Translations under genes and position numbers: made by a program
Source: Candidatus Microgenomates bacterium
GTDB lineage: Bacteria; Patescibacteriota; Microgenomatia; UBA1400; UBA12108
Length of the DNA stretch: 64,000 nt
Assembly (NCBI GenBank): GCA_003576945.1
Contig: QEVC01000002.1
Location: 5,792 to 69,791, forward strand
Direction: 5' to 3'
Notes under the pieces: generated by a model
Seen by the model: the letters and a program-made list of their open reading frames with translations, nothing else
Told to the model about the DNA's origin: nothing
Databases searched by the model: none
In this document: positions 6,340-60,789 of the stretch, piece by piece
Numbering within the stretch: the first letter of the stretch is position 1
Layout: every line of letters starts with the position of its first letter

Positions 6340-6344
6340 ATTTG

Positions 6345-6418
6345 AGATGCGAGAAGGATTCGAACCTCCGTCTTTTCGTTTTACAACGAAATGCCTGAAC
6401 CAACTCGGCTATCGCATC
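6345..6418 (-). tRNA. atypical tRNA-like gene (GUA anticodon = Tyr-like, short variable arm, 8-nt anticodon loop or 6-bp stem)
   Basis: Reverse complement gives a perfect 7-bp acceptor stem (GATGCGA/TCGCATC) and T-arm GGAGG-TTCGAAT-CCTTC. The anticodon arm is an 18-nt perfect hairpin TTTCGTTGTAAAACGAAA, one nt longer than canonical. No encoded CCA. Confidence 0.6.
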
Positions 6419-12564: not shown

Positions 12565-12584
12565 CAGACAATCAGAAAACTCAG
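12565..12584. repeat. left arm of a perfect 20-bp inverted repeat (cagacaatcagaaaactcag) bracketing the four-helix-bundle gene; TCAGA-periodic flank
   Basis: Exact reverse complement of 13024-13043. TCAGA recurs every 8-16 nt through 12572-12628. Confidence 0.8.
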
Positions 12585-12604
12585 AACATCGGATTATCAG
12601 ATAT

Positions 12605-13000
12605 TCAGAATTTATCAGATCTCCAGATAGAATGTAATTTGTTGATCCTTTTTGAGAGTGTTTTATACTTAATAGCGAGATTCTCGATATCTTTTTGTAG
12701 TCTAGGTACTGCGTGATATATCGTTCTAAAGTGAGTTACCACTTCATCACTTGATCCAATGGAAATTTTCAAAAATCGCTTAAACTCTTTTTCGGATGAT
12801 CTTTTTGCAAACCCTTCAGAAATATTGGCAGAAATAGACTTAGCAGCACGTTTTAATTGGTTAATTGAGTCAGTCTCAGATTTAGGTAATTTTCGCAACA
12901 GGTCATATAAATGCTTAATTAAATCTAATGACTCTGTATACACACTAAGATCAGTGACGTCTCTTATCATTAACTTATAATACCAAATATTCTGGTTCAC
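12605..13000 (-). CDS. four-helix-bundle protein (23S rRNA intervening-sequence protein / Avd-like family)
   Basis: 'QLKRAAKSISANISEGFAKRSSEKEFKRFLKISIGSSDEVVTHF' is typical of TIGR02436. The track start is GTG; an ATG at 12968-12970 would give 121 aa. Confidence 0.8.
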   Translation of the reverse strand: MNQNIWYYKLMIRDVTDLSVYTESLDLIKHLYDLLRKLPKSETDSINQLKRAAKSISANISEGFAKRSSEKEFKRFLKISIGSSDEVVTHFRTIYHAVPRLQKDIENLAIKYKTLSKRINKLHSIWRSDKF

Positions 13001-13023
13001 CGACTCTCAGGCTCACTGATTCT

Positions 13024-13043
13024 CTGAGTTTTCTGATTGTCTG
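13024..13043. repeat. right arm of the 20-bp inverted repeat (ctgagttttctgattgtctg)
   Basis: Reverse complement of 12565-12584. The flank 13000-13043 is TCTG-periodic. Confidence 0.8.
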
Positions 13044-14608: not shown

Positions 14609-14636
14609 ATTATTTCCCCATACTAAATACAAAATT

Positions 14637-20250: not shown

Positions 20251-21351
20251 TTACCTCACCACCTCGCAAACCAGCATCTCCCCCGGCGCCACCTGTCCCG
20301 GTATTCGCTTAGCATCAGACAAAAATACCTGGAAACGATTGATATAAGGATAAAGTAAAAAGATACTCATCGCCGCCATTCTAATTCTCGCTTCGTATAA
20401 CTCCAAAAACATCTCCGTAAAAATCTCTCGGTAAGACTGTCCTGCGATATATTTCGCATGAAATGCCTTTGGTACCCATATCCTACCATTCCCTTTGGTA
20501 AAACTCGCAAACTTGTCTTGCAATTGCTCAATCTCAAAATCTAGGTGCCAGACGTAAGAGTTAGCTGCCATCACCCAGGCACTCCTTACAATCAGGGCGT
20601 TTAAGAGAATGTGCACGTCTTCCTCTAGGGCGTTATTCGCAATTCCCGATTCATAAGAGCGATCTCCAATCCGATCTCTCCCCACGTGCATCTTATCTGC
20701 CGCAACCAGTGCCCACTGTAAGGGTATTCCAGAACTCAGGTTGACTGAGAGATCAACGAGCATTGGCTCCTCATGAAAGAGTATTGTATAAAGCACACTC
20801 CGCCACTCCTTTTGGTGTATCTCTGTATTGCCAAAGAGACGGGATAGTAGCCACGCCGAATACATCGAGTGACTCTTACGGTCTACCAAGTTGCCAAGGT
20901 CATGCGTCATCCCAACTAGGGTTAGCAGGACTTCGCTCTGACTATCATATAAATCTTCGCCGTTTTTATAGCTCCTCCCTGCGCGCGATAGCAGCTCGAC
21001 CGCCGTTTGGGTCACCCAGAGAGTATGTCGATCCGTATGATCATTAAATCCATGTGGCAGTTCGCGGTCCAGTACTGGCCCTACATAATTCCAAACTTTC
21101 CCCAATCCAGAATATAAATAAGATAAAGCTTCGCCCTTCCCCGATAAATGTAAAAACTCGCCAAAATCAAATAATCGCTTTACCCTCGGCACTTTATGGT
21201 TAGTTAAAAAGGGAAAGTCTTCTTTTTTATAATCAATCCCTGCCGAGTTAAAGTACTCCCATAGTCCCTGCCCGTCCGCCCGACGCATTTCATCACTCCC
21301 CAAGAATGGCGAGTTAATGTCTATTGACCATTTTGGAGTTGCCTGCATCAT
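20251..21351 (-). CDS. HD-domain phosphohydrolase-like protein
   Basis: 'HTDRHTLWV...LVGMTHDLGN' H...HD pattern. Last gene of a four-gene minus-strand cluster. Confidence 0.5.
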   Translation of the reverse strand: MMQATPKWSIDINSPFLGSDEMRRADGQGLWEYFNSAGIDYKKEDFPFLTNHKVPRVKRLFDFGEFLHLSGKGEALSYLYSGLGKVWNYVGPVLDRELPHGFNDHTDRHTLWVTQTAVELLSRAGRSYKNGEDLYDSQSEVLLTLVGMTHDLGNLVDRKSHSMYSAWLLSRLFGNTEIHQKEWRSVLYTILFHEEPMLVDLSVNLSSGIPLQWALVAADKMHVGRDRIGDRSYESGIANNALEEDVHILLNALIVRSAWVMAANSYVWHLDFEIEQLQDKFASFTKGNGRIWVPKAFHAKYIAGQSYREIFTEMFLELYEARIRMAAMSIFLLYPYINRFQVFLSDAKRIPGQVAPGEMLVCEVVR

Positions 21352-21401
21352 ACCCTATACATTTTACACATTAGTCCTATACACATTAACTATCCCCAAG
21401 C

Positions 21402-22439
21402 TTAGATTTGTAACATGGTGGCATTTTTTGGCTGCCGTGTAATATCAAAACCATTTGTCGTCCCAGGAGATGGATGTGTATTAGCAAAAAGCAGTAGAGC
21501 TCCAAAAAGCTTATAACTCCCACCTTCTGCTATCAATTTTATTGCCTTTAACTCATCTACTTCTCCGACTTCTGGTAGCTGTAACGAGATATCTATATTG
21601 TGATGTCGACAGAAAAATACAAGGTCTTCCATCCTACCTAGACCAGCTCTGCCATCGAAGACTTCGTAAGCTTCTTTCTCACTCATTCCAATCTCTTTAC
21701 TCCTTGCAACATGTTCGTCAAAAAACATTTTTCGCAGAACTTTGTCACTAAGCGGGTGAACATCCATAGTTAAACCCGCTGTCTCTCGGCCTGTAAATAC
21801 TTTGATAGTTGGTGGAACATATAAATCATTTTGTTTATGTACTGATGTTCGAACCGAAAAACGAGCACGAGTCAAACCGATTGTTGCGTCGACTGCTCTC
21901 GTAGCCTTTCTTCCCGCTGATCCATATTCCTTATCGCAATACGAATCTATTTCGTTTCTCATCTCGCTTGCAGTCATTTCTTTTGTTGGTTTTGAAAAAT
22001 GAAAATTGAGCACTCTTCTCCAGCTACCAACGCTCTCACCTATTTCATTCAGCCATATTTCTCTTGCCGCAACGTCTGTTGCTATAGTCCCAAATTCACC
22101 GCCATTTTCAACAATACTCAAAAACAGATCAGGAACTATACTATGTCTCTCTTCATCTATAGCCATCTCCCACATTTTCATAACTTGGTCGGAAGCCTTT
22201 TTTGTAATCAAGTCTGGAGTGCCGATCATCGCATCTTCTTCGACTACACTGATCGGTAAGTGTAGAACTCTATCCATGTATCCACCACTAAACGCAATTG
22301 TAAAATCAGCAAAATGTTTATTAATCAGAATAGACAAGTTATTAAGAAGAACTTCAAACTTCCATCTCGTACTCGTAATAATACAAGGATTCTTAAAAAA
22401 CACTTCGGTGGCTGTCAGTCCTGATTCAGCTAGAGTCAT
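21402..22439 (-). CDS. hypothetical protein
   Basis: Start trimmed to 'MTLAESG'; the longer track ORF would run through a hairpin/U-tract. No domain recognised. Confidence 0.4.
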   Translation of the reverse strand: MTLAESGLTATEVFFKNPCIITSTRWKFEVLLNNLSILINKHFADFTIAFSGGYMDRVLHLPISVVEEDAMIGTPDLITKKASDQVMKMWEMAIDEERHSIVPDLFLSIVENGGEFGTIATDVAAREIWLNEIGESVGSWRRVLNFHFSKPTKEMTASEMRNEIDSYCDKEYGSAGRKATRAVDATIGLTRARFSVRTSVHKQNDLYVPPTIKVFTGRETAGLTMDVHPLSDKVLRKMFFDEHVARSKEIGMSEKEAYEVFDGRAGLGRMEDLVFFCRHHNIDISLQLPEVGEVDELKAIKLIAEGGSYKLFGALLLFANTHPSPGTTNGFDITRQPKNATMLQI

Positions 22440-22448
22440 AGACAAAAA

Positions 22449-22466
22449 ATCCCGCTTACGCGGGAT
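22449..22466 (-). terminator. GNRA-loop hairpin (AUCCCGC-GUAA-GCGGGAU) + U6, ending 9 nt before the start codon of 21402-22439
   Basis: Read on the minus strand. Paralogous to the hairpin at 23471-23486. Confidence 0.5.
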
Positions 22467-22668
22467 AACCTCTCCATTGTGTAATGGCAAGAATACTACA
22501 AAGATAGTATTGACTAGGCTTTAATACCAAAAAAGCCCCCTTCTGATGTTTGGTTTCCATCCCATCCTATCGGGATTGCTGTTACTTGAATCAAAAGCGA
22601 GACTTGTCTCACTTCGAATTTAATCTAATTTACACAACTGTTACGCACGATCAATATATCAAAATATA

Positions 22669-23463
22669 TCATTTAACAAGTTCTCGATGTTTCTTAACCA
22701 CCCCTATTGCTCCAGCTACTAATCCAGGTGCAACTCCTCTTAGATAAGGATAGGCCATGATACTCGCTTCCCTCCCACTCTCTCTATCATCTACTTTTAT
22801 GGTTCTTCTTCCGTCACTCACTATCAACTCTTCTCTTCTTGTCCCACTAATTTCCTTACCTATTTCTCCCCAGATTCTAAACAATTGATCAAATCTCAAT
22901 CCTAAGTTTGAATCTGGAATCACGAGGCCAGTTTCAATCCACCCCTTATCTTGAGCCGCAGTTATTGCATCACCACTAGAAAGCCAACGAACAAAACTAT
23001 GAGGGACATTAATCGATAGGTTACGCCATCCGACCCATGTTGGATAGTCATATTCAATTAGTTCTGTAGTCAGTATATTGCTTACTACCAGGTCAAGTGC
23101 TCCTCCAACATTTTGAAAAAAAGACGTTAAATGGTTCCATGGATCACCCTTTGGCTTATTAAGCTGAACGCCTAAGGCCCTTATAGTTACGTCGAGACTC
23201 GTCCATGCCCAGGTATGAGTATCTGCCAATTTATCAAACGCTCCTGATTCGAGCAAGGGTATTTTCTGTGCTTCCTTTTTCCCTAGTCCCAATGATCTAT
23301 TATCTGTTCCAATCGGCTCAACTACATCAGGAACTTTGAGCCAGCCCCGTTTATGTTCAAAGAGCTCAGGTGCTTGAAAATATTTTGCTGCCTTATGCGC
23401 CATCTTTGTAGCTAGGGCTATCGCGAGAGGACGCTTTGACGATAATATTTGCTCTTTACCCAT
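22669..23463 (-). CDS. hypothetical protein
   Basis: Start taken at 'MGKEQILSS', immediately after the hairpin/U7. No domain recognised. Confidence 0.4.
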   Translation of the reverse strand: MGKEQILSSKRPLAIALATKMAHKAAKYFQAPELFEHKRGWLKVPDVVEPIGTDNRSLGLGKKEAQKIPLLESGAFDKLADTHTWAWTSLDVTIRALGVQLNKPKGDPWNHLTSFFQNVGGALDLVVSNILTTELIEYDYPTWVGWRNLSINVPHSFVRWLSSGDAITAAQDKGWIETGLVIPDSNLGLRFDQLFRIWGEIGKEISGTRREELIVSDGRRTIKVDDRESGREASIMAYPYLRGVAPGLVAGAIGVVKKHRELVK

Positions 23464-23470
23464 AAAAAAA

Positions 23471-23486
23471 TCCCGCTCTCGCGGGA
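23471..23486 (-). terminator. GNRA-loop hairpin (UCCCGC-GAGA-GCGGGA) + U7 directly abutting the AUG of 22669-23463
   Basis: Minus-strand read GGGUCCCGCGAGAGCGGGAUUUUUUUAUG. Intrinsic-terminator architecture with no leader. Confidence 0.5.
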
Positions 23487-23595
23487 CCCTCAATAATAAA
23501 GGAATACCTCATTTTAAGAGGATTTTGTACAAAAAAACCGATGTGCTCCTTTTTGCTCATCGGGAGTTAAGTATACACAATTGGTACACACTAAG

Positions 23596-24357
23596 TCAAC
23601 GGGGATAAGCATAATATTGCGATGCTTCCCTGGCATAAACCACCACATCTCTATATCTCTTCTGGGCTCCGCATTGTGCTTCAGGAACTTTTGGCATCTT
23701 ACTCTCGGCCTTTTGGATAGACTCATAAATCGGTGGTGTTATTTTTCTATCATTTAGTTTGCCACGCAAAGATTTTAATTTCATTTTGCGCTCTTTTTCA
23801 AAAACCCGTGCCATAACATCAATACTTGTATTTGGTGCAGCTCTCAATACTCTGTCTGGCCAATTCAAAACATTCTTATCTTTCACAGCCGATGCATTAG
23901 CTTTGGGATCAAATTCAGGATAAATTTTGGCTATACCATCAATAATACCCATAAAGCCAGAAATTAAGTTGCCCTCAGAAACGCCCAACTTATTACTCTT
24001 ATCTAAGTACCCAAGACCAACCCTCATCCCCAAAAACCATATCACATCACCACCTTCGCTTGAAGCACTAATAGGATTTAACTTAAGCACTTCACCATTT
24101 AAGATCGGAACCTCTTCACTCAACTCTTGCATTTCATCAATTGCGGAGTTAATTAGTGTAGCCGAGTTTCCTGCAAAATCACGCGCAAACATAACGTCGC
24201 GAGTTTTGAGCATTTCGATCTGGATACCCAGATAATGTGTCAAAATAGGATGTTCACCAAGCATTCCAGGCCTATCTTCAACTATTCTCTTAAGACTTTC
24301 ATACTTTCGTTTTAATTTTGGATGAATAGCGTCAAATGGCAACATACATCTATCCAC
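23596..24357 (-). CDS. hypothetical protein
   Basis: 253 aa; first gene of the cluster. No domain recognised. Confidence 0.4.
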   Translation of the reverse strand: MDRCMLPFDAIHPKLKRKYESLKRIVEDRPGMLGEHPILTHYLGIQIEMLKTRDVMFARDFAGNSATLINSAIDEMQELSEEVPILNGEVLKLNPISASSEGGDVIWFLGMRVGLGYLDKSNKLGVSEGNLISGFMGIIDGIAKIYPEFDPKANASAVKDKNVLNWPDRVLRAAPNTSIDVMARVFEKERKMKLKSLRGKLNDRKITPPIYESIQKAESKMPKVPEAQCGAQKRYRDVVVYAREASQYYAYPR

Positions 24358-24465: not shown

Positions 24466-27400
24466 TCAATCTCTCTTCATCATTGCTAATACTAGCGTGG
24501 TTCCAAGCAAAACAAAACCTAAATACTGCAATAATTGCGGCCAGTAAAAAATAATCACAATTCCGTTCCCCTCATTATTCATAATTCCTGATTCATTATT
24601 CACAACAAACCCATTTGCCCACCCATCCACTTTCAGATGTCTTAAACTTGCTACATGATACTTGATACTTGATACATTCAACCCCACCCATCCTTCATCA
24701 TACCCTTGACTCAGCCTGATAAGCCCATCACCTCGCACTCCCAACCCATACAACCAAGTCCCCGTCTTTTTTACATGTGTGATCCTAAGGTCTGATCTTG
24801 TAGGTTGCAAATCATTATCATAACCTACGAGGTCAGACCTTATAGGTACCAGCTTTGCCCTCACGATCTTCTCAATGGGTGCGTATCTAACCTCTACTTT
24901 ATCTACCCTATTCTCCGCATACTGCCCAAAACTGCGCGTCTCGATATTGAGGCTGTAGTGTCCATCCCAATCCCAAGGTAGTAGCGAGAATGTCTGATCA
25001 AACTTGCCCCTGTCCATCAGATATTCGATATCATTCCGTTCACTACCTGTATTGTAAAGAAAGAATTTGAGACTCCTACCAGCTTTATTTTCTCCCATTA
25101 CTCTCATTAGATGTGGTACACGGGTAAACGGCCCGCCCATGACTACGTAGTCACATACTGCACCTCTCCCGTCTGCCATATAGGTCGATCTTTCTTTCTC
25201 AGCGCTACCCCGCTTCAATACGTCACAATTTCCGATACTCCCCTGCCCTTGCCGGCCAAAGTCATAGATAAAGGCTTCTCCCATTATTTCTATACTTAAT
25301 TCATCATTCAAAATACTAAATACCTGTTCTCTCCTATATTCCTCCCATTCCTCTCCCTCACTCACTCTAGCGTAGAAATAGCTCTCCCCCTCTTTAGGCT
25401 TTTCCTCTCCCAAAAATCTCGGACCCTTTTCTCCGTTTATATAATATGCTGGCAACGCTTCATTATTAACAAAATCTACTCGAACGATCTCTCCCACCCC
25501 CCACCCCGGTATCACCAGCTCCCGTGATCCAAGGTCTGATCTTGTAGCGTTTACTCCTACGAGGTCAGACCTTAAAGTTATTCCTTTGTCTCCATACTCT
25601 ATATTTTTTATTTCCTCCCGCATCAGCTGCGCAAACGGATAAACTACTGTCCCCTGCGATTCAAGATCTGATCTTGTAGGTTGCAAGTCTTTCTCAAAAC
25701 CTACGAGGTCAGACCTTCCAGGTTGTTCCACATATGTTCCCATCTCCGCATAAATCACATCCTTTCTCGTTTTCAAAGTATCTCCCTCCACCCACATATA
25801 GCTCTCCGGCACCGTGATCCCAAGGTCTGATCTTGTAGGGTTTACTCCTACGAGGTCAGACCTTACAGGAATTTTCCAAACACTCAAAAAGTTCTCATTA
25901 AACACTCTCTCCCACCCTAGCTCTTGTGCCAGCTCTTTTGTCTCCTCTATTCGCAAAATATCTTTGTCCTGCCCCGGCGCAATCACGCTCTCATCTAGTA
26001 GCACATATCGCACGTCATACTTCTGCAAAACTTTTTGTACTTGCCCACTGCACCCTGCACCCTGCGCTCCAAGGTCTGATCTTGTAGGGTTTACTCCTAC
26101 GAGGTCAGGCCTTACAGGACAAGCATAAATTGCAGTCGCAAACTCGTTATAAAACCCCTCGTTATACGGACTCCACGCATAAAATGCCTTGTCTAGAATT
26201 GGCATATTTATCCCTTGCCATACAAACCCACTCCCCCTGTATCCCCACTCATTCAGCTCCCATCCCCAAAAATCCTGTTGCGGTAGTTGTAGCACTCTCC
26301 CCGATTCCACACTATCCATAAATCGAAACAACTCTTGATATTCACTCGGTAACTCTACCCGCAATTTATCGTAAAGCAACTCGCCACGAAAAACTGGAAA
26401 GCTCCACATAATCACCACTCCCACCAATCCAGCAGTGATTCCAAATCTAACCACCCCCCACTTCATCCATCCTAAAACCATCGTCAGTCCATATCCCATC
26501 ATCACAGCGAGACTCATCGCATAAACTAGTGAAAATTTCGTAAAAGCAAATCGGAATATCGCGTCATAATACGGCACATACTCCCTTAGTGTCCACCCCA
26601 CACTCGATACTATGGGGATTCTCAGTCCCAGGTTACACAAAGCGAACAACCACACTACTCCTATCGCCGCCACCCTCCACTCTCTCTTCCACATCGCCAT
26701 GACCCATCCCAACAAACCAGTTCCCACCACTCCCCATCCTATATAAAAAATCCACGCCTGCCCCCACCACTCTATCCACTGTGGCATCTGCAACCCAAAC
26801 TTTCCATCTCCTACATAATCTTCAAACGCTAGTGAGAATCCCTCCATCGCCACCACACTCCGAATGTCACCATATTCGGCGTTGCGCAGCACCACCTCAC
26901 TATTAGATAGTTGGCTCGATTTCGAGGCATTTATCCCTGCCGCACTCGTCATCGCCGAATAAATGTATGGCAGTCCCCAAAAAGCATTCACGGCAAATAG
27001 CACTACTACCACATTTCGCACTCGCTTCCACCCCACCCTCCAGTGTTTCATCCAATAGCTAACAATCAAAGTAAAAATGGTGAGACCGTACACAATAAAA
27101 ATGGTGGGCACGTGTGCTTGTGGGATCGCCAAAAAGTTAATGATCAGGAGTCGCCACAACTTCTTTCGCTCTGGTGCGTCAAAATAAGTCAGTAGTGCCC
27201 ATACTCCCCACGGCAGTGCCGCAAAGTGCATGACAAATAGCTCTAGCGGCTGATAAAACATCTGCACTGTATAGGGGTTCAGCATATAAAACAGTGCCGT
27301 AACTATTGCCACTCCCTGCCTCACTCTCTCCTGCTTACGCAGGATATACATGCTGAGAACATACATCCCCACGCCACCCATTAGGTGCATGAGTAGCACA

Positions 27401-27678
27401 TAAGCGTAACGAACATAGTTAGTAGGTAGTACGAGCGACAACAGCCACGCATACCCCACATGCACCAGGTTCGCCGCGTGCGCCATGGCATCCGTCATCC
27501 CTAGCCCCCGGTATTCTTGCCACACCGATGATAAATCACGCCACAAATGTGTCGAAAATGCCAGTTCTGGCTGTGTACTATCCCAGCCGATTAGCCACGT
27601 CCCAGTGCGGACATTCGCCCACACTATTCCCACTTCAACGAGAACTAATAAAAATACTCCCCACCACCGCTTGAGCAT
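24466..27678 (-). CDS. large polytopic membrane glycosyltransferase-like protein (GT-C/YfhO/ArnT-like N-terminus, soluble C-terminus) carrying five in-frame palindromic repeat units
   Basis: 1070 aa. About 14 predicted TM helices in the N-terminal ~430 aa. C-terminal part contains five copies of 'RSDLVG(xx)..PTRSDL'. Adjacent GT2 gene. Confidence 0.6.
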   Translation of the reverse strand: MLKRWWGVFLLVLVEVGIVWANVRTGTWLIGWDSTQPELAFSTHLWRDLSSVWQEYRGLGMTDAMAHAANLVHVGYAWLLSLVLPTNYVRYAYVLLMHLMGGVGMYVLSMYILRKQERVRQGVAIVTALFYMLNPYTVQMFYQPLELFVMHFAALPWGVWALLTYFDAPERKKLWRLLIINFLAIPQAHVPTIFIVYGLTIFTLIVSYWMKHWRVGWKRVRNVVVVLFAVNAFWGLPYIYSAMTSAAGINASKSSQLSNSEVVLRNAEYGDIRSVVAMEGFSLAFEDYVGDGKFGLQMPQWIEWWGQAWIFYIGWGVVGTGLLGWVMAMWKREWRVAAIGVVWLFALCNLGLRIPIVSSVGWTLREYVPYYDAIFRFAFTKFSLVYAMSLAVMMGYGLTMVLGWMKWGVVRFGITAGLVGVVIMWSFPVFRGELLYDKLRVELPSEYQELFRFMDSVESGRVLQLPQQDFWGWELNEWGYRGSGFVWQGINMPILDKAFYAWSPYNEGFYNEFATAIYACPVRPDLVGVNPTRSDLGAQGAGCSGQVQKVLQKYDVRYVLLDESVIAPGQDKDILRIEETKELAQELGWERVFNENFLSVWKIPVRSDLVGVNPTRSDLGITVPESYMWVEGDTLKTRKDVIYAEMGTYVEQPGRSDLVGFEKDLQPTRSDLESQGTVVYPFAQLMREEIKNIEYGDKGITLRSDLVGVNATRSDLGSRELVIPGWGVGEIVRVDFVNNEALPAYYINGEKGPRFLGEEKPKEGESYFYARVSEGEEWEEYRREQVFSILNDELSIEIMGEAFIYDFGRQGQGSIGNCDVLKRGSAEKERSTYMADGRGAVCDYVVMGGPFTRVPHLMRVMGENKAGRSLKFFLYNTGSERNDIEYLMDRGKFDQTFSLLPWDWDGHYSLNIETRSFGQYAENRVDKVEVRYAPIEKIVRAKLVPIRSDLVGYDNDLQPTRSDLRITHVKKTGTWLYGLGVRGDGLIRLSQGYDEGWVGLNVSSIKYHVASLRHLKVDGWANGFVVNNESGIMNNEGNGIVIIFYWPQLLQYLGFVLLGTTLVLAMMKRD
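24787..26113. repeat. five palindromic hairpin units (arms aggtctgatcttgtagg / cctacgaggtcagacct; spacers 7 or 19 nt) inside the 24466-27678 ORF
   Basis: Units at 24787-24842, 25531-25573, 25653-25708, 25822-25865, 26071-26113. Arms form a 17-bp stem with G-U pairs as RNA. All unit lengths keep the frame. Confidence 0.85.
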
Positions 27679-28570
27679 ATGCTTTCATTCTAGCAAGCTC
27701 TAAGCTCTCTGGATACAGCGCGTAGTCCTGCCAGCGCTTGATCCCCCGCACAAGGTAATACAGCTCTACCGTCAATCTCTCCGGCAGGAGCATTACTAGC
27801 ATTGCCTGCACCATCAGCTTGAGTATCGAGATCACACTCGGTCGATAACCCATATCTTTTATCGCCTTCATTCTGATTTTGAGCAAGTTGATAAAGTTGC
27901 GCCGCACATGAGCTAGTGAGTCATTGTGACCATGGATACGGTAAAAAAGTAACGGGGTGGCAATATTGGCAAAAACCTTCCCGCTTGTCAGGTAGGTAAA
28001 AAAGGTCAAATAGTCGTTGTTGGCTAGATACTCTATCCGGTAAAAAGATTTCGGGTTTACAGAACTGGCTCGTACCATCACGCTCGGGTGGATCATAGGG
28101 TGAAAAGTAAAAAACTCTCGCTCGATCTCACTATGTTTGATCGGTACTCGCTTTTGCCCTACTTCGCGCCCCTCTCTATCAATTACGATTGCGTTTGATC
28201 CTACGATATCAACTCGTTTATTTTTCTCCAAAAAAGCTACCTGTGTAGCTAATCGAGTCGGTAGTGCAACATCATCTCCGTCCATCCGGGCAATATAAGC
28301 TCCTCGGGCTTTAGCGAACCCGATATTCCCTGCTATATCACCTCCCGCATTACGGTTATTCCGCAATCGGTAAGCTCTAATTTTCTTGGTGTATTTTTTG
28401 GCAAAATTACTCACTATCTTCCAGGTATTATCCGTCGACGCATCGTCAATAATAATTAGTTCCCAGTTGGTATATGTTTGGTTAATGATCGACTCTATTG
28501 CTTGCCCGACAAACTCCCCCGCGTTATACACAGGCATCACCACACTAACTAATGGTTCTTTTCGTTTCAT
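27635..28570 (-). CDS. family 2 glycosyltransferase (polyprenyl-phosphate sugar synthase-like)
   Basis: 'VSVVMPVYNAGEFVGQAIESIINQTYTNWELIIIDDASTDNT' with the GT2 DxD motif. Confidence 0.85.
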   Translation of the reverse strand: MKRKEPLVSVVMPVYNAGEFVGQAIESIINQTYTNWELIIIDDASTDNTWKIVSNFAKKYTKKIRAYRLRNNRNAGGDIAGNIGFAKARGAYIARMDGDDVALPTRLATQVAFLEKNKRVDIVGSNAIVIDREGREVGQKRVPIKHSEIEREFFTFHPMIHPSVMVRASSVNPKSFYRIEYLANNDYLTFFTYLTSGKVFANIATPLLFYRIHGHNDSLAHVRRNFINLLKIRMKAIKDMGYRPSVISILKLMVQAMLVMLLPERLTVELYYLVRGIKRWQDYALYPESLELARMKAYAQAVVGSIFISSR

Positions 28571-30636: not shown

Positions 30637-30955
30637 AGCTATGCTCGATTTATGAGCAAATCATTGCATACGACTATCTTGATAGACGACAGCAACTTCT
30701 TTTTCAAGCTCAAGGGTCTCAAAATCAAAAATCTCCTCAACTTCGACTTTGGCAAATTTCCCGAGTTTCTCGCAGGTGACAAACCAGTCTTCCAAGTTAT
30801 GCTTTAACCCAAAACACCCAGCACTCCACTCTCTTAACCAAAAGTGACATCCTACAATTTATTTAGTTTTTAAAGAACACCTGCTAGTAGCAGGTACACG
30901 TCTTCAAGGTCGGACCTTGAAGGCACATATCCACCACTGTGATATACTCAAATTT

Positions 30956-34545: not shown

Positions 34546-36759
34546 TCAACCGCACACCGCAAAGCCGCACCCATAGCATTTGCGACACCCCTCCTCTATC
34601 GCCAGCTTGCCTCCACAATTGGGGCACTCCGACCCGATCTGGCTGTCTGATTTCTCTGATTTCCTGGTAATCTGAGTTTTCTGGTTGTCTGAATTCTCTG
34701 ACTTTCCCACATTTAGGACTTGCCCCTCTCTACTCCCATCTCGGTATACCGTTATTCCTTTACAGTGTAGTTCAGAGGCTTGATAGAAAACCTTAATCAC
34801 ATCATCCACCGTTGCGGTACTAGGTAAGTTAATGGTTTTTGACACCGCATTATCCGTGTATTTCTGAAAAGCTGCGAGCATGGCCACATGGTCCTCAGCA
34901 CTTAAATCCATCGCAGTGACAAAAACATCTCTAATCTCTTTGGGAATACTACTTATATGTTTAATACTGCCGTGTCGCGCGATCTCATCCATGAGTTCAG
35001 TCGAATATAGACCATTTACATGTTTGATCGCTTTAACCAGATCAGTGTTTACTTCGGGTAGGGTGTATTGACCCATGCTTTTTCTAAAGTAAGCGAGCGC
35101 AAAATGTGGCTCTATTCCCCCACTCGCATTCGTCATCATGCTAATAGTCCCAGTCGGTGCGATCGTCGTCACTGTCGCATTGCGAAAATGTTTATAGCCT
35201 CGCTTCTGCCAAAGAGAACCTTTGAAATTGGGGAAACTCCCCTTTTCCTTACCCAAGGCCGAAGATGTTTCCCAGCCAATTTTTTGCACAAATTTCATGA
35301 GTTTCTCAGCTAAGCTTAGTGCTTCTTTTGAGTTGTATGGAATATGCAATTTAACCAACATGTCAGCCCAGCCCATGACCCCTAAGCCTATCTTTCTATT
35401 TCCCCGTACAACTTCTGCCACTTTTTTAAGCGGGTACTCACAGACAGAGACCACATCATCTAACATTCGAACTGCAACGCGCACCGTCTCCTCTAACTTA
35501 CCCCAATCAATTCCCATTCCGGATTCACTGCTATACGGATTCACGGATTTACTATCATCTTTTACATGCACCGCCAAATTAATGCTTCCCAAATTACACG
35601 CTTCGTAAGACAAAAGTGGTTGCTCTCCACATAGGTTAACCGTCTCTAGTATTCCCACGTGTGGTGTGGGGTTATATTTATTAATCTCATCAACAAAAAT
35701 CAAACCTGGATCTCCATTTTTCCAAGCCATTCTGGCTGCTTCTTCCAGTATTCCTCGAGCCGAAACTCGTGCCGTTATCGCCCCATTACGTGGATTAATC
35801 AACTCCCACTCCTCATTATTTTTTGCTGCCTCCATAAATTTGTGGGTCACCGCGAGCGAGTAGTTAATATGGGGCAAGTTTGAGCCCGACTCTTTACAGT
35901 GAATAAAATCAATCACATCGGGGTGTGACACCGGCAGCGTTACCATATTTCCACTTCGTCTCTTGCCTGCCTGCAAATAGATATCTGAGGCATCGTTCAC
36001 GAGCTGCATGAGAGCTACTGGCCCACAAGCCGCACCCGAGGTCGTACTCACCCGATCATCCTTAGGTCGAATATGTCCAAAGGTAAACCCAACTCCTCCT
36101 CCATATTTTTTGAGTATCGAAGATTCTTTGAGAGATTCAAAGATCCCCTCGATATCGTCTGGCATCGGCATCACAAAACAGTTAGCCAGCTGATTATTGG
36201 GAGTCCCCGAGTTCGCGAGCGTCCTCCCACCAGGCATAAACCTCAGTTCTCGCATAATATGTTCAAACTTTTCTTGCCAAAGCTTTTTATCCTTCTTTTC
36301 GGCACTCGCCAAAAACTTGGCAGTTCGAGCAAACATTTCACCTACCGACTCCACTACTTCCCCGCTCTCATCTTTCCTAATATATTTTTCTCTAGCGACC
36401 GTTAATGCGTTTAGCGATAGTCCAACCTCATCATGAACTCCGAGTGCATGTTTTGCTGCTTCAACCTGTCTCTTCTTCTCTCTGTTTAAGATGTAGGCTT
36501 TCGCTGTTTTGTAATGCGATTTCTCAAGGAGTACTCGCTCCACCATATCCCCAATCTCCGCGCTCGTTACCCGCCTGATCCTCCCATACTGTTTTTTTAG
36601 CCGCTCCACCGCCTCATGCGCTAGTTCAACTGCTAGCTTATGATCTGTCCCACCAACATCTTGTGCCGCGAGGAAGATCGAGTCTGCTATCTTACCCACA
36701 TCTAATATTTGCTCACTCTCGTTCCGCTTTAAAACCGTAACCTTATTTGTTTTTTGCAT
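34546..36759 (-). CDS. nrdJ: adenosylcobalamin-dependent (class II) ribonucleotide reductase with ATP-cone and C-terminal zinc ribbon
   Basis: ATP-cone N-terminus, 'ANCFVM', 'NLCGEQPL', C-terminal 'CPNCGG..CRKCYGCG'. The linker 'SENSDNQKTQITRKSEKSDSQ' is encoded by a TCAGA-periodic repeat (34637-34706). An ACGGATTC repeat lies at 35521-35556. Confidence 0.85.
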   Translation of the reverse strand: MQKTNKVTVLKRNESEQILDVGKIADSIFLAAQDVGGTDHKLAVELAHEAVERLKKQYGRIRRVTSAEIGDMVERVLLEKSHYKTAKAYILNREKKRQVEAAKHALGVHDEVGLSLNALTVAREKYIRKDESGEVVESVGEMFARTAKFLASAEKKDKKLWQEKFEHIMRELRFMPGGRTLANSGTPNNQLANCFVMPMPDDIEGIFESLKESSILKKYGGGVGFTFGHIRPKDDRVSTTSGAACGPVALMQLVNDASDIYLQAGKRRSGNMVTLPVSHPDVIDFIHCKESGSNLPHINYSLAVTHKFMEAAKNNEEWELINPRNGAITARVSARGILEEAARMAWKNGDPGLIFVDEINKYNPTPHVGILETVNLCGEQPLLSYEACNLGSINLAVHVKDDSKSVNPYSSESGMGIDWGKLEETVRVAVRMLDDVVSVCEYPLKKVAEVVRGNRKIGLGVMGWADMLVKLHIPYNSKEALSLAEKLMKFVQKIGWETSSALGKEKGSFPNFKGSLWQKRGYKHFRNATVTTIAPTGTISMMTNASGGIEPHFALAYFRKSMGQYTLPEVNTDLVKAIKHVNGLYSTELMDEIARHGSIKHISSIPKEIRDVFVTAMDLSAEDHVAMLAAFQKYTDNAVSKTINLPSTATVDDVIKVFYQASELHCKGITVYRDGSREGQVLNVGKSENSDNQKTQITRKSEKSDSQIGSECPNCGGKLAIEEGCRKCYGCGFAVCG
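34637..34706. repeat. TCAGA/TCTGA-periodic element half-copy inside nrdJ
   Basis: Contains ctgagttttctggttgtctg (34672-34691), a 19/20 match to the four-helix-bundle flanking IR. Confidence 0.7.
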
Positions 36760-45140: not shown

Positions 45141-45270
45141 ATAGAGCATGCAGACGTCAATTTTTTGTGCATTGTAAGTATGAGAATTCAAGAGAAATTA
45201 GATGAGCAAGCACCAGCGGTCGAATCTAATTTATCCTGAAACGAATTTCTCAAAAACAAAAAATTGTAAA
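45141..45270 (+). repeat. copy 1 of a ~130-bp direct repeat (agacgt..attgtaagtatgaga..tcaagagaaa..gagcaag..cggtcgaa..cctgaaacgaatttctcaaaa.caaaaaa.tgtaa.tcgaaa)
   Basis: About 85% identical to 47497-47626, same orientation. Intergenic between the 44501 gene and the epmA 3' end. Confidence 0.75.
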
Positions 45271-47496: not shown

Positions 47497-47626
47497 AATC
47501 AGTGCAGACGTTATTTTTTTGCGCATTGTAAGTATGAGAAATCAAGAAAAATATGAGTGAGCAAGTGACAACGGTCGAACCATATTTTTCCTGAAACGAA
47601 TTTCTCAAAAGCAAAAAAATGTAAGT
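47497..47626 (+). repeat. copy 2 of the ~130-bp direct repeat
   Basis: In the divergent region between mreB and the 47662 gene. Confidence 0.75.
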
Positions 47627-47661: not shown

Positions 47662-49632
47662 ATGCAAATCCTCATCCAGACCATCCTCCACCTCTCTGTC
47701 ATCTTTATTCCCCTCACCTTTACCACCCTCAACTCCGAGCTCTTTGAGTTCCCCAAGTTCATCCTCCTCCTCTCTGCTACCCTCACCATCCTCACCGCCG
47801 CCATAGTAGATTACTTACATAATCGTCATTCTCAGAGATATACGGATTTACGGGTTAACGGATTTACGAGTCCCATTAGTCTCGCCGTACTTGCAATCCT
47901 CGCCACCCAGCTCTTATCCACTATCTTTAGCATCAGTCCCTATACCAGTTTTTGGGGTTACTATAGTCGCTTCCACCAAGGTCTCTTAACTACCATTTGT
48001 TACACCATTCTCTACTTTGCCGCTTGCCTCTACCTGGATAAAGAAAGTGTGCAAAAACTTATAAAAGTATCTGTAGGAACAGCTTTTTTTATTAGCCTAT
48101 ATGCCATCTTACAGCGCCTGGGAATCGACAAATCGCTCTGGATCCAGGACGTGGTCAACCGCCCTTTTAGCTCGCTCGGCCAACCCAACTGGCTCGCTGC
48201 CTACCTCCTCCCCAATCTATTTTTATCTCTCTATCTTATTAGAGATTTTCCAAAATCACTTACACTGCGTACCGCCTACTGCGTCATACTCATTGGCCTC
48301 CTCCTCACCAAATCTCGCTCCGGTTTTATTGCCCTCGCACTTAGCTATCCACTTTATTGGCTCCTCCTCGCTCGCCAGTTCTCCTTCACCAAAATAAAAC
48401 AACAACTATTTCTTTCTACTTTCTACTTTCTACTTGTCACTCTTTTTGTCGGCACTCCCTACACTCCCAAGTTAATAGATCTCCTAAAATCTCCTAAGCA
48501 AGAAATTACTAGCTCCCAATCAACCGGCACCCAACTCGAAAATGGAGGGACTGAAAGTGGGGATATTCGTCGCATAGTCTGGTCCGGCGCTCTCAAGTTA
48601 ATTCAAAAACACCCCATGATCGGGACAGGTCCCGAAACCTTTGCTTATACCTATTATTGGCAGAGACCAGTCGCTCACAACAATACTTCAGAGTGGGACT
48701 ATCTTTACAACAAAGCCCACAACGAATATCTAAACATTGCGGCAACCACTGGCGTGCTCGGTCTCCTTGCCTACCTCTACTTTCACTATGCTGTCTTTCT
48801 TAAAAGTACAGAATTAGTTGTTAAATCCAAAAAAATCAATCAAGAAGAAGATAATAATTTGCGCAGTCTCTACCCTGTCTTAGGTGCCACCATTATTGGT
48901 TTCACCATCACCAACTTTTTTGGCTTCTCCGTGATCCCAGTCTATCTCTTGACGACCCTTATTGCCGCGCTGCCCCTATCTGTAAATCAACAACTAGATA
49001 AAGGCAAAAACGACAAGAATCTAGTCCTCCTAATCTTTCTCCCTCTCATCTACCCCGCCCACCTATTCTTCACCGATATTAGCTTTGCTAAAGGGAAAGC
49101 CTATTTAGATGCCAATCAACCTGGGAATGCTCTCCCACTCCTCCAGAAGGCCGTAAATAGTAGGCCAGGATTAGACTTGTATCATAGTACCGTCGGCGAA
49201 GCCTACGCCCAACTAGGCCAAACAGAACTCGCTGTCAAAGAAGCCGAGCTAACCAAGAAGCTCAATCCCTACCATCTCAACTTCTACAAGAGCCGAGCAA
49301 AAATCTATCTCACCCTATCCACCAACGACTCCCAATATTACCAGCCTGCCGCGAGAGAACTCGAAGAGGCCCGCACCCTCGCCCCCACCGACCCCAAACT
49401 CTACTACAACCTAGGCCTAATCTATACTCGCCTCGGCAATAATGATCAAGCCATAACCCAGTTTAAGCAAGCCATCTCCCTCAAGCCCAACTACGAGAGT
49501 CCCTACTATGCCCTCACTCTCCTCTACGAGCAAACTGATCAAAAGAAACTTATACCTGATCTACTCTCAAGCGCCAAAGAAAACCTGGCTACATATAGTG
49601 GCGCTTTAAACGAAAAAATTTTACTCTACTAA
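47662..49632 (+). CDS. O-antigen ligase/polymerase-family membrane protein with C-terminal TPR repeats
   Basis: Polytopic; 'KSRSGFIALALSYPLYW' Wzy_C-like. C-terminal TPR-like 'YYNLGLIYTRLGNNDQAITQFKQAISLKPN'. ACGGATTT tandem repeat in frame at 47839-47870. Confidence 0.65.
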   Translation: MQILIQTILHLSVIFIPLTFTTLNSELFEFPKFILLLSATLTILTAAIVDYLHNRHSQRYTDLRVNGFTSPISLAVLAILATQLLSTIFSISPYTSFWGYYSRFHQGLLTTICYTILYFAACLYLDKESVQKLIKVSVGTAFFISLYAILQRLGIDKSLWIQDVVNRPFSSLGQPNWLAAYLLPNLFLSLYLIRDFPKSLTLRTAYCVILIGLLLTKSRSGFIALALSYPLYWLLLARQFSFTKIKQQLFLSTFYFLLVTLFVGTPYTPKLIDLLKSPKQEITSSQSTGTQLENGGTESGDIRRIVWSGALKLIQKHPMIGTGPETFAYTYYWQRPVAHNNTSEWDYLYNKAHNEYLNIAATTGVLGLLAYLYFHYAVFLKSTELVVKSKKINQEEDNNLRSLYPVLGATIIGFTITNFFGFSVIPVYLLTTLIAALPLSVNQQLDKGKNDKNLVLLIFLPLIYPAHLFFTDISFAKGKAYLDANQPGNALPLLQKAVNSRPGLDLYHSTVGEAYAQLGQTELAVKEAELTKKLNPYHLNFYKSRAKIYLTLSTNDSQYYQPAARELEEARTLAPTDPKLYYNLGLIYTRLGNNDQAITQFKQAISLKPNYESPYYALTLLYEQTDQKKLIPDLLSSAKENLATYSGALNEKILLY

Positions 49633-50816: not shown

Positions 50817-51788
50817 ATGTCGCCTCTTATCTTTTTTGGCTCCGATCGTTTTAGTGCCGTCGTACTAAGTGAGCTAATCAGTCAAAATCACGCTCCAACA
50901 CTAGTAGTCACCGACCAACCAAAACCTGCCCGCAATACTTCGCATAGCGATGCAGGCGGGCCCAAAGGAAAGCAAGGTATTCTTAGTCCCAACGAAGTCG
51001 AAACTCTCGCCAAAACGCAAGACATAAAAATATTATATTATCAAGACAACAACGAAGAATTGATCAAATATATACAACATTCAAAATACAACATACAAAA
51101 TACCAATCTAACTGGCCTCTCTGCCTCTTTCCCCCACCTCTTCCCCGCCGACTTTATCAGTTTGTTTAGCGGTCATCTCTATAATCTCCACCCCTCCCTC
51201 CTCCCACAGTACCGCAATGTTGCACCAGGTCCTTACGCCATCATCATGGGCGATAAAGAGACCGGGATCACCCTCCAGCATATCGACGAGCGTATCGATA
51301 CTGGCAGTATCATCGCCCAGCAGTCAGCTCCCATTCATCCCTCCGATACCTCTACCACCCTCCTCAACCGACTTTTTACCAAGGGTGCTGAAATCTTTAT
51401 TCAGCATTTATCGGACGGATTTACGGATTTACGGATTAACAGATTTACGAATCAACTAATCTTTACCCGCAAGCTCACCCGCCAGTCTGGCTACATCGAG
51501 TGGGACATCGTCCAAAAGCTACTTCAAGGTCGGACCTTGAAGGTGGGTGACACAGTCAACCCCCTAATCCATCTCCGTCTCACCCATCATCCAGAGAGAA
51601 CAGAGAACATCCTCCCCGACCTAATCCGTGGCCTCAACCCATATGAGCGAGTCTGGACAGTAGCAAAAACCAAAAAAGGAGAACTCCAGCTCACACTATC
51701 CCTCTCACCCAACGGCGAAATTATGGTCCTAATCCCTGGCAAGCCAAAACCAATTCTCTATACTGATTTTGTAAAGTATTATCTCTAA
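50817..51788 (+). CDS. fmt: methionyl-tRNA formyltransferase
   Basis: 'NLHPSLLPQYRNVAPGPYAIIMGDKETGITLQHIDERIDTGSII'. The inter-domain linker carries the ACGGATTT tandem repeat (51412-51452) and the 21-bp palindrome (51522-51542). Confidence 0.8.
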   Translation: MSPLIFFGSDRFSAVVLSELISQNHAPTLVVTDQPKPARNTSHSDAGGPKGKQGILSPNEVETLAKTQDIKILYYQDNNEELIKYIQHSKYNIQNTNLTGLSASFPHLFPADFISLFSGHLYNLHPSLLPQYRNVAPGPYAIIMGDKETGITLQHIDERIDTGSIIAQQSAPIHPSDTSTTLLNRLFTKGAEIFIQHLSDGFTDLRINRFTNQLIFTRKLTRQSGYIEWDIVQKLLQGRTLKVGDTVNPLIHLRLTHHPERTENILPDLIRGLNPYERVWTVAKTKKGELQLTLSLSPNGEIMVLIPGKPKPILYTDFVKYYL

Positions 51789-60094: not shown

Positions 60095-60739
60095 ATGCCC
60101 TACCCTAAGTTCTGGACAGAGTCAGAACTCGAAAAACTAAAGTCTCTTTATAACTCTGGTCTTAGTATGCGAGAGGTAGGTGAATACTATGGTAAATCAG
60201 TACGAGCCATCGTTAGTGTGATGAAACGTCACCATATAATCAGAAGACCAGCCTCAATCACACGCACTTACCAGTTTTCAAAATCACCATTATCCTTTCA
60301 AGTTAAACAAAATCTAAATCATCACGAAGAACTACTCAAGATCGCGGGCCTAATGCTCTATTGGGGTGAAGGAGGCAAGAAAAATTCTAAAGGAGTAGAT
60401 TTTGTCAACTCTGATCCCGATATGATTATAGTTTTTTTACGGTTCCTCCGTATTGTCTATCAAATAGATGAGGCTAGACTCCGAGTCTACCTCTACACAT
60501 ACCAGTCACTCCCAACACCACGTCTGGTTGATTATTGGTCTAAGTTAACTAAGATCCCTAACACACAATTTACCAAGCCATATATCAGAGAGAAAAGCAG
60601 TCAAAAACATGATAAAATGTCACATGGCCTCATTCATATCAGATACTCTGACAAACGTTTGTTTGAATTAATAATGAGTGAGATCAGCTCTTTTATATCA
60701 AGCTGGGATGGTGGAGCGGTCAAACACACGACTCTGTAA
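60095..60739 (+). CDS. hypothetical HTH-containing protein with a degenerate LAGLIDADG-like segment; 3' end overlaps tRNA-Tyr
   Basis: N-terminal HTH 'LSMREVGEYYGKSVRAIVSVMKRH'; 'IAGLMLYWGEGGK'. The last ~12 codons are the tRNA-Tyr 5' half, so the true stop may be earlier. Confidence 0.3.
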   Translation: MPYPKFWTESELEKLKSLYNSGLSMREVGEYYGKSVRAIVSVMKRHHIIRRPASITRTYQFSKSPLSFQVKQNLNHHEELLKIAGLMLYWGEGGKKNSKGVDFVNSDPDMIIVFLRFLRIVYQIDEARLRVYLYTYQSLPTPRLVDYWSKLTKIPNTQFTKPYIREKSSQKHDKMSHGLIHIRYSDKRLFELIMSEISSFISSWDGGAVKHTTL

Positions 60740-60789
60740 AAGTCGCGCCTCACGGCTACGCAAGTTCGAATCTTGCTCCCAGCACCAAA
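60702..60789 (+). tRNA. tRNA-Tyr (GTA), class II with long variable arm, CCA encoded
   Basis: GCTGGGA..CGACT-CTGTAAA-AGTCG..long arm CGCCTCACGGCTACG..GCAAG-TTCGAAT-CTTGC-TCCCAGC-A-CCA. Confidence 0.85.

Follow-up and report, generated by a model that had tools for sequence, protein, structure and literature searches.

Palindromic repeats that sit in frame inside protein-coding genes have been a Rickettsia curiosity for 25 years, with a mobilising mechanism that is still obscure, and the genomes of the Candidate Phyla Radiation (CPR) are thought to be nearly free of mobile DNA. Here we analysed a 64-kb stretch of a Candidatus Microgenomates bacterium contig (hereafter the window), in which the gene of a 1070-residue, AftD-like membrane glycosyltransferase-like protein of the GT-C fold (24466-27678, minus strand; hereafter the host gene) carries five palindromic units. 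The units probably belong to a family of miniature, non-autonomous palindromes found in CPR bacteria of the Microgenomates group, which is copied as DNA into a limited number of sites and filtered where the copies fall in coding sequence. The literature that we searched describes in-frame palindromes in Rickettsia, intragenic repetitive extragenic palindromes (REPs) and palindromic amphipathic repeat coding elements (PARCELs), and nothing of this kind in CPR/Patescibacteria.

In-frame insertion into genes is documented for the Rickettsia palindromic elements (RPEs; PMC10969869, PMC1458961), and REPs within genes have been described as well (PMC3733652). The element described here may be called RPE-like, as in the first-pass annotation of this DNA, or like REPs and their hairpin-forming doublets (REPINs), by analogy only, as it lacks what defines membership of either family. 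Like the RPEs, it is a palindromic repeat found between genes and in frame in unrelated genes of a small-genome bacterium, with a peptide tolerated on the protein surface and no mobilising enzyme found in either case (PMC10969869, PMC1458961, PMC3733652). RPEs are about 100-150 bp long and number hundreds per genome, whereas the core of this element spans 38-55 nt and is low-copy here; it is set apart by length and by host (a Microgenomates organism of the CPR), has no apparent sequence relationship to RPEs, and has as its own features five copies in one gene, the same peptide in either orientation and a fixed orientation on the chromosome strand.

REPs and REPINs are imperfect palindromes of 20-40 nt, often paired into a larger hairpin, with frequent G·T pairs in the stem, long-lived sites, coexisting families, occasional intragenic copies and a proposed single-strand, replication-linked mechanism (PMC3733652, PMC3116915, PMC6006769). 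The present element shares this architecture (a short imperfect palindrome with a stem of 7-20 nt, often an inverted doublet forming a larger hairpin). However, REPs carry GTAG or GTGG 0-2 nt 5' of the stem-loop (PMC6006769, PMC3733652), whereas here GTAG lies at the inner (3') end of the arm (..CTyGTAGG-spacer-CCTACrAG..), 3' of the AGGTCnGACCT core. REPs are also mostly extragenic and high-copy, whereas roughly half of the distinct sites of this element lie inside open reading frames (ORFs), and REPs are accompanied by a REP-associated tyrosine transposase (RAYT, TnpA_REP) gene, whereas no HUH/Y1-like ORF was seen in the window or, by a weak test, in 0.70 Mb of fetched loci. Miniature inverted-repeat transposable elements (Correia/NEMIS, ERIC, BOX, RUP) are likewise short and non-autonomous, with inverted ends and in-frame fusions with ORFs (PMC10969869), but they typically measure 70-300 bp, generate target-site duplications and have related full-length insertion sequences, none of the three being found here in the fetched DNA. 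The IS200/IS605 insertion sequences offer a parallel in hairpin recognition, the absence of terminal duplications and a replication-linked, strand-specific orientation (PMC6006769), but have distinct left- and right-end hairpins and a TnpA gene; here there is a single palindrome and no TnpA was seen (again by a weak test). PARCELs are coding repeats with dyad symmetry in the DNA, known from membrane or surface proteins in bacteria with small genomes, and their movement is believed to take place at the level of DNA (PMC2996958); they form tandem arrays of a 25-residue amphipathic motif, in contrast to the single, dispersed hydrophilic loops of 13-18 residues found here.

On the plus strand each unit of the window reads A-AGGTCTGATCTTGTAGG-spacer-CCTACGAGGTCAGACCT-T, with arms of 17-18 nt. 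The first-pass annotation had placed five in-frame palindromes between 24787 and 26113, with spacers of 7 or 19 nt that keep the frame in every unit, and reading all five bore out these positions exactly as well as both spacer classes: gtttact (7 nt) in units 2, 4 and 5, and 19 nt in units 1 (ttgcaaatcattatcataa) and 3 (ttgcaagtctttctcaaaa). There is one variant base each in unit 2 (..GTAGC), unit 3 (AGA..) and unit 5 (..GGCCT). The units stand singly, 89-689 nt apart, and all five encode in frame a hydrophilic peptide of 14-18 residues, RSDLVG(VN)PTRSDL or RSDLVG(xxxDLQ)PTRSDL. Unit 1, a long form (24787-24841, 55 nt including the A and T ends), reads RSDLVGYDNDLQPTRSDL on the minus strand (residues 947-964); unit 2, a short form (25531-25573, 43 nt), reads RSDLVGVNATRSDL (residues 703-716); unit 3, again long (25663-25717, 55 nt), reads RSDLVGFEKDLQPTRSDL (residues 655-672); and the short units 4 (25822-25864, 43 nt) and 5 (26071-26113, 43 nt) read RSDLVGVNPTRSDL (residues 606-619) and RPDLVGVNPTRSDL (residues 523-536), respectively. 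With up to 3 mismatches the arm matched 13 times in the 64 kb against 0.13 expected (0/100 shuffles), and the 13-nt core AAGGTCnGACCTT matched 10 times with up to 1 mismatch against 0.11 expected, so that chance is ruled out as the source of these repeats. Outside the host ORF, the arm matches fell only in a shorter related palindrome present at 30902-30923 and 51522-51543.

Two unbiased scans, an exact arm-pattern scan over 185,579 species genomes and a full-element pattern scan of JGI metagenomes, together yielded about 45 further full elements. They came from assemblies of Microgenomates and Woesebacteria, from an 'uncultured bacterium' metagenome-assembled genome (MAG) with seven copies on 7 of its 34 contigs, and from several MAGs with a Pseudomonadales or Gammaproteobacteria label and genes that are clearly orthologous to those of the window. 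The hosts confirmed by Pfam were UppS, ComEA (two orthologues, with the element at the same site), a Wzy_C O-antigen-ligase-like protein and a nucleotidyltransferase-like protein; GT-C genes were the recurrent host (L013/L066, L027, L032, L069 and L087), one copy lay directly upstream of murB and the remaining copies were intergenic. The search for the arm in relatives, as proposed by the first-pass annotation, thereby showed that related CPR genomes carry this palindrome both between genes and within unrelated genes, with copies in the loops of several unrelated proteins. Recurring base for base in other genes and between genes, the repeat behaves like a small DNA element that is mobile or copies itself, and unlike a protein motif. 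The core of the family spans 38-55 nt in all and consists of arms AGGTCTGAyCTyGTAGG and their complement around a spacer, which sets the length classes: 38 (tcat or taat), 40 (cgtagt-like), 41 (gtttact or gcttgtc), and 52 and 53 nt (ttgcaag...caaaa). Conservation extends beyond the palindrome, on the C·A strand, to wwCCTnyA before the left arm and to T and a looser AATCRCAg after the right arm; the core plus these flanks spans 60-75 nt, and comparison of filled with unfilled orthologues at one site gave an inserted length of 60-72 nt. As to the odd labels, contigs L025, L027, L032 and L044 ('uncultured Pseudomonadales' or 'Gammaproteobacteria') carry Microgenomates-type genes, the element and a strong GC skew, with GT-C orthologues on L027 and L032, and are probably mis-binned or mislabelled.

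Alignments with orthologues of the host protein presented the units as extra segments whose presence and site differ between orthologues, a comparison that, together with the dispersed copies, supports the first-pass proposal of an element spreading into coding sequence. Unit 1 is an insertion relative to orthologues, and its site holds a short form in L032 and a diverged copy in L002; the site of unit 2 retains a solo arm or a solo core; that of unit 3 holds the same form in L027 (arms 33/34 identical, flanks 88/146 and 92/147); that of unit 4 a 38-nt-core form in L013/L066; and that of unit 5 other palindromic families in L002 and L087. Conversely, the orthologue P0008 (encoded on L001) has one unit at a sixth site that is empty in the window, with arm nucleotides identical to those of the window. 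Over 11 pairs of orthologous sites the arms were identical at 372/374 positions, against 60-79% identity in the 150-nt flanks: the nucleotides of the element are essentially invariant while the host genes diverge.

Sites shared by close relatives differ in their contents, holding different variants, another family, remnants or nothing. The spacer class varied among orthologues at GT-C site E (53, 53 and 41 nt), at GT-C site F (53 and 41 nt) and at one intergenic orthologous site (38 against 52 or 53 nt). In uppS, a single codon position was occupied by the 40-nt form, the 52-nt form, a second family ('KSSDHS..AQGSEL', arms AGTTCCGATC/GATCGGAACT), a third insert (GGSDPVSL..., recognised at the peptide level), a shortened loop or the native loop. 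Three of these uppS genes, with the 40-nt form (L036), the second family (L093) and the short loop (L092), are 84-86% identical in DNA outside the loop, the 52-nt form lies in a 71%-identical gene, and the loop states are interleaved in a neighbour-joining tree of UppS. Such swaps between close genes indicate that copies are replaced, gained and lost in place, as gradual divergence cannot give them, and the GT-C sites displayed the same pattern. The second family (loop ACTCGCTAGCGCAAG, read as SQSSEHSLAQGSEL) was located in L087 (1565-5026, a GT-C orthologue), L093 (1264-1304), L043 (2026) and L017 (3090); it occupies RSDL-unit loops in another genome as well as the uppS position, keeps its hairpin through paired changes in the arms (AGTTCCGAAC/GTTCGGAACT, AGTTCCGATC/GATCGGAACT and AGTTCTGATC/GATCAGAACT), and occurs together with the RSDL family in both bin-0061 and L087. 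Relics often remain at 'empty' orthologous sites, namely a solo arm in L013 (AAGATCTGACCTTGTAGGA) and a solo core with the right flank in L001, which are the products expected from deletion between two nearly identical AGGTCnGACCT cores. In the window itself, site E, which follows CDVLKRGxAxK and is filled in three orthologues, contains AGGTCGATCTTTC on the plus strand at 25182-25194 (KERST in the protein), a weak match that may be the relic of a deleted unit.

Copies in coding sequence are constrained in frame and in length. The left arm contains stops in two of its three frames (AAG GTC TGA; GGT CTG AyC TyG TAG), so that a surviving coding copy is always read as RSDLVG, in either orientation; UppS belongs to a different frame class, in which the right arm gives LQDQTL. 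Length differences between variants at the four coding sites compared were all multiples of three (41/38, 53/41, 53/41 and 40/52, that is 3, 12, 12 and 12 nt), in contrast to differences of 1, 14 and 15 nt at non-coding orthologous sites. Such a pattern is expected from selection on translated insertions and speaks against their removal at the RNA level.

Beyond the first-pass description, we observed that the palindrome has a fixed polarity. Search patterns permitted any combination at the two wobble positions, yet every copy of the main family paired T,T of one arm with G,G of the other, giving two fixed G·T positions. The G·T strand was the locally C-rich strand in 43/43 copies (38 of them non-identical, at roughly 25 distinct sites), including intergenic copies and those in genes located on the C-rich strand itself (Wzy_C in L062 and the nucleotidyltransferase-like gene in L091). 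Because the polarity is the same whichever strand the gene is on, orientation goes with the chromosome strand rather than with transcription or the peptide. The second family is also polar, with its loop ACTCGC..GCAAG on the G-rich strand in 9/10 copies from four assemblies, the tenth (L017) having a diverged loop in a similar orientation; contigs almost free of skew carry a sister family that has perfect C·G pairs and outer arms of its own. Mutation bias was considered as the cause of the asymmetry and rejected: from either ancestral perfect palindrome the required changes would oppose the local GC skew. The skew of the window is negative throughout (-0.07 to -0.36 in every 2-kb bin), matching the whole-chromosome G/C strand disparity reported for Microgenomatia of the order UBA1400 (PMC7143001). 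An orientation fixed relative to a replication-related strand is a signature of single-strand (Y1/HUH), replication-coupled transposition (PMC6006769), and the element shares this bias with the IS200/IS605 type, the link to replication being drawn here from composition (PMC7143001).

Taken together, these observations suggest a DNA-level copying process that would insert copies at a limited number of tolerant sites and exchange them there. The copying could be carried out by an enzyme transposing the element in trans upon recognition of its hairpin in single-stranded DNA, or could proceed by ectopic gene conversion between copies. Selection would then filter the coding copies for the open frame of the left arm, a length that keeps the frame and a site in a surface loop, and the survivors would be translated as the hydrophilic RSDLVG...PTRSDL loop. 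Density is strongly non-random, since a single 3.2-kb gene holds all five copies and the other ~77 kb has none. In other genomes, too, the GT-C orthologues are crowded with palindromes, some of which belong to other families (L087 has six). From these two features the host loops are read as old, tolerant landing sites whose content is exchanged, and the five copies in the host gene would reflect a large, loop-rich extracytoplasmic domain in which such sites are kept refreshed.

Several results weigh against this interpretation. No transposase or integrase domain was found by Pfam among the 10 unassigned ORFs of the window, the other ORFs being, by eye, housekeeping genes, and the same combined check revealed no HUH nuclease-like ORF in the window. 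A phmmer search of 3267 ORFs from the 0.70 Mb of fetched loci gave no TnpA match, in a weak test with an IS608 TnpA sequence as the query. The direct-repeat score of a copy's own flanks was 6.24 against 6.17 between flanks of different copies (9-nt window), giving no significant target-site duplication; imperfect direct repeats of 7-9 nt flank a few coding copies (L001, L087, L052 and L013). Copy number, which the first-pass annotation had suggested might vary between strains, was constant among those compared: three near-identical strains (P0001, P0121 and P0123) all have five units, the two others differing from the host protein by 2 and 6 amino acids and both carrying the consensus base in unit 2 (A711P) where the window has C/G at the inner arm base (GTAGC..GCTAC), and among the 12 full-length P0002-cluster strains compared the only change in length was a 7-residue indel beside a palindrome read as LQG. 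No further copy was found in the window or in ~16 kb of extra flanks from close relatives with identical flanking proteins, so that the family may have very few copies in this genome, all of them in the host gene. The strain itself is present in many metagenomes, its flanking proteins being indexed in 46-50 blocks of the assembly collection. Finally, perfect conservation of the arms across species is equally expected from purifying selection on a functional DNA site. The label 'selfish' in the first-pass annotation is an interpretation, with no transposase, target-site duplication or strain-level presence/absence found to go with it. A phage origin was also considered and dropped, the element having no match in IMG/VR viral contigs.

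Purifying selection on a functional site leads to the alternative that fares best, although we judge it rather unlikely, in which the palindromes are functional, strand-polar DNA signals (sites for dimeric proteins, or single-strand hairpin signals tied to this lineage's unusual replication and strand asymmetry) kept by selection on their nucleotides, their embedding in coding loops being a consequence of a compact genome. The near-identity of the arms within diverged flanks would be its natural outcome, as would the polarity toward the C-rich strand in every copy irrespective of gene direction and the persistence of sites across orthologues. The two G·T positions, held counter to the skew and apparently not attributable to mutation bias, the core AAGGTCnGACCTT, a 6-1-6 inverted repeat of the type bound by dimeric proteins, and the strand disparity of whole chromosomes in UBA1400 Microgenomatia (PMC7143001) are all compatible with it. 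However, a signal would not be expected at so low and patchy a density, concentrated in one gene of the window, nor with closely related uppS genes lacking the element or holding another family, nor with decayed and half-deleted copies being common, and no candidate binding protein was identified. Selection on a DNA signal would account for arm conservation and polarity, but not for the patchiness, the family swaps or the relics. A role as promoter or terminator was tried and rejected, since the units lack a T-tract and a consensus promoter scan of the intergenic copies was empty. As a lead only, TGTGATA(nn)AT occurs 11-14 nt downstream of some intergenic palindromes (30938-30948 in the window, 3456-3468 in L050, and the right flanks in L067, L070, L056 and L082); it resembles an extended -10 box, which the consensus scan did not call, and the palindrome would then sit at the -35 or operator position.

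A broader version, which we consider improbable, would unite the palindromes, their sister families and the strand-polar TACGGATT repeats of the window (described below) as cis-acting signals in single-stranded DNA, tied to the strand asymmetry of the whole chromosome and possibly to unidirectional replication, with lagging-strand priming, fork-handling and segregation signals as examples. A conserved host protein would read the one-strand hairpins, and constraint would keep them in coding loops, where they would be re-written at fixed sites.

An action of the hairpins in RNA, on mRNA stability, translational pausing or processing, is very unlikely. The stems are far more stable than those of shuffled sequences (z-scores of -3.8 to -6.8), and G·U-type pairs are usually taken as a sign of RNA function (PMC3733652). 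The first-pass annotation had described a 17-bp RNA stem once G-U pairs are allowed; this stem exists, but only on the plus strand, antisense to the host gene, where the two wobble pairs (G-U/G-T) form, the mRNA strand having two A·C mismatches instead. Both strands fold, as it had suggested verifying, with RNA energies of -21 to -29 kcal/mol for the mRNA strand against -27 to -34 kcal/mol for the plus strand (about 5-10 kcal/mol less stable), and DNA energies of -8.8 and -11.6 (mRNA-sense strand) against -11.0 and -14.3 (plus strand). The perfect 17-bp G-U stem would accordingly form in an antisense transcript or in the plus DNA strand and not in the mRNA. Across the family the G-U form is antisense to most host genes and sense in L062 and L091, with an orientation that tracks the chromosome strand; Rfam gave no family match, only sub-threshold miRNA-hairpin noise; and the selection on frame and length described above indicates that the units are translated, not removed.

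That RSDLVG..PTRSDL is a genuine protein repeat or motif under selection on its amino acids is still less credible. The host protein is identical (100%) to P0001, the hypothetical protein DCC61_00690 (RIK52073.1) of Candidatus Microgenomates bacterium on a 70.5-kb contig. Pfam and NCBIfam searches of the protein itself gave no match, while PF11847 or PF10131 is present in some of its homologues. An AlphaFold2 model (pLDDT 88.6, pTM 0.89, from a 53-sequence alignment) was matched by Foldseek best to the mycobacterial arabinofuranosyltransferase AftD among solved structures (E 4e-15) and next to STT3/PglB (E 2e-5 to 2e-3), and displays the AftD/STT3/PglB-like arrangement of a multi-pass N-terminal GT-C membrane domain followed by an extracytoplasmic C-terminal domain. 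The units coincide with the main pLDDT dips of the latter, in coil between secondary-structure elements, with 10-residue blocks mostly at 48-77: unit 1 averages 77 (941-950) and 61 (951-960), with residues 950-954 below 50, unit 4 averages 74 (601-610) and 57 (611-620), and residues 655-665 of unit 3 and 532-540 in and beside unit 5 are below 50. This position in low-confidence coil fits the first-pass view of a hydrophilic block that is tolerated in the C-terminal domain. All coding copies do give the same peptide, in an extracytoplasmic domain, but a constant peptide already follows from the stops in the other two frames of the left arm. The motif RSDL..RSDL was present in only 3 of the 120 best homologues, namely the query, P0002 (61% identity) and P0008 (41% by BLASTP, 44% in an alignment), and all three are palindromic in DNA; the first-pass annotation had named a repeat conserved in protein without the DNA palindrome as the observation that would speak for a repeat domain, and none was seen. 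The remaining 117 homologues lack the motif, synonymous positions are invariant between genomes, and identical DNA occurs in non-coding regions and, in UppS, in a different frame (second arm LQDQTL).

Equally hard to sustain is the notion that the units serve programmed recombination that inverts or deletes gene segments, as in phase or antigenic variation. Each unit contains both arm orientations, and the plus strand, which in the matching frame also gives RSDLVG..PTRSDL, is open in that frame between units 4 and 5. The first-pass annotation had attributed the plus-strand ORF 25814-26128 to this coding of the same peptide on the opposite strand; the peptide is indeed there, but it explains the ORF only partly, because the 206-nt stretch that separates units 4 and 5 is free of stops by chance. 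Stops are present in each of the other three intervals, from one to many, the 4-5 interval codes for secondary-structure elements of the conserved core, and the three near-identical strains show no rearrangement, so that an invertible coding cassette was rejected. An assembly or sequencing artefact can practically be dismissed, for although chimeric reads can create palindromes, the same units with conserved flanks recur in independent assemblies (NCBI, JGI, ENA and Logan).

Further repeats and features were recorded in the window; of its repeated 12-mers, mostly chance matches, only the longer repeats were retained. The shorter palindrome related to the arm is a perfect one, CTTCAAGGTCgGACCTTGAAGG, sharing the AAGGTCnGACCTT core, and is intergenic at 30902-30923 and in frame at 51522-51543 within an fmt-like gene (50817-51788, plus strand), where it reads LQGRTLK. 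Perfect palindromes of type CCTTCAAGGnCnGnCCTTGAAGG (21-23 nt) occur in the fmt-like gene, in intergenic DNA and in GT-C orthologues (L001 4201-4225; L002 4220-4242), and read LQGxxLK when coding, with LQGxSLK-type examples in L001 and L002 and, at the peptide level only, in a Wzy-type protein of L062; the strain-variable 7-residue indel of the P0002 cluster (DLPNGEA) adjoins an LQG palindrome. Tandem 8-nt repeats TACGGATT, in 3-4 copies, lie inside four unrelated genes at 2024-2059, 35530-35560, 47841-47870 and 51415-51445 (a hydrolase gene and nrdJ on the minus strand, an O-antigen-ligase/TPR gene and the fmt-like gene on the plus strand) and read KSVNPYSxES or TDLRxNxFT; with ACGGATT on the plus strand in all four genes whatever their direction, this motif is also chromosome-strand polar. 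A box ATTCAAAATACTAAATAC(AAAAT) occurs at 25306, 36761 and 53983 (also at 14620), directly upstream of nrdJ and of a traG/virD4-like gene (minus strand) and once inside the host gene, in the interval that separates units 1 and 2. The box is a possible promoter element and, in the host gene, perhaps an internal promoter.

Directly upstream of the host gene lies a GT2 glycosyltransferase gene (27635-28570, minus strand), and the four consecutive genes downstream (20251-24357, minus strand; 366, 362, 274 and 253 residues) had zero Pfam matches. A 21-nt inverted repeat CAGACAATCAGAAAACTCAGA at 12565-12585 and 13023-13043 flanks an ORF (12605-13000, minus strand) for a four-helix-bundle protein resembling the '23S rRNA intervening-sequence protein', with which it looks like a small cassette; a third copy is at 34671, at the 3' end of nrdJ. 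Two intergenic blocks, 45169-45255 and 47523-47610, share exact stretches of 19 and 22 nt at equal spacing and are duplicated 2.35 kb apart, upstream of different genes. ARAGORN called a tRNA without clear identity at 6344-6418 (minus strand; anticodon 'gtaa'), which may have an unusual anticodon loop or be a miscall. An ORF of 214 residues at 60095-60739 (plus strand), with a LAGLIDADG-like motif by eye and a weak Pfam match to a GcrA-type helix-turn-helix, overlaps the start of tRNA-Tyr (60702-60787) and has counterparts of 190 residues in L097 and 214 residues in L098.

If the units are, as we favour, a self-copying DNA family, a far smaller family of similar behaviour in CPR bacteria would mean that in-frame palindromic insertion recurs in reduced genomes. 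The family also offers a more tractable case, with an element of only 40-55 nt that carries a built-in strand marker in its two fixed G·T positions, an orientation that tracks the chromosome strand in 43/43 copies, and single codon positions in UppS and ComEA at which element variants switch among close relatives. The mode of copying, its dependence on single-stranded DNA at the replication fork and the addition of loops to proteins are thereby made testable. For annotation, units of this kind explain lineage-specific insertions and spurious antisense ORFs in CPR proteins.

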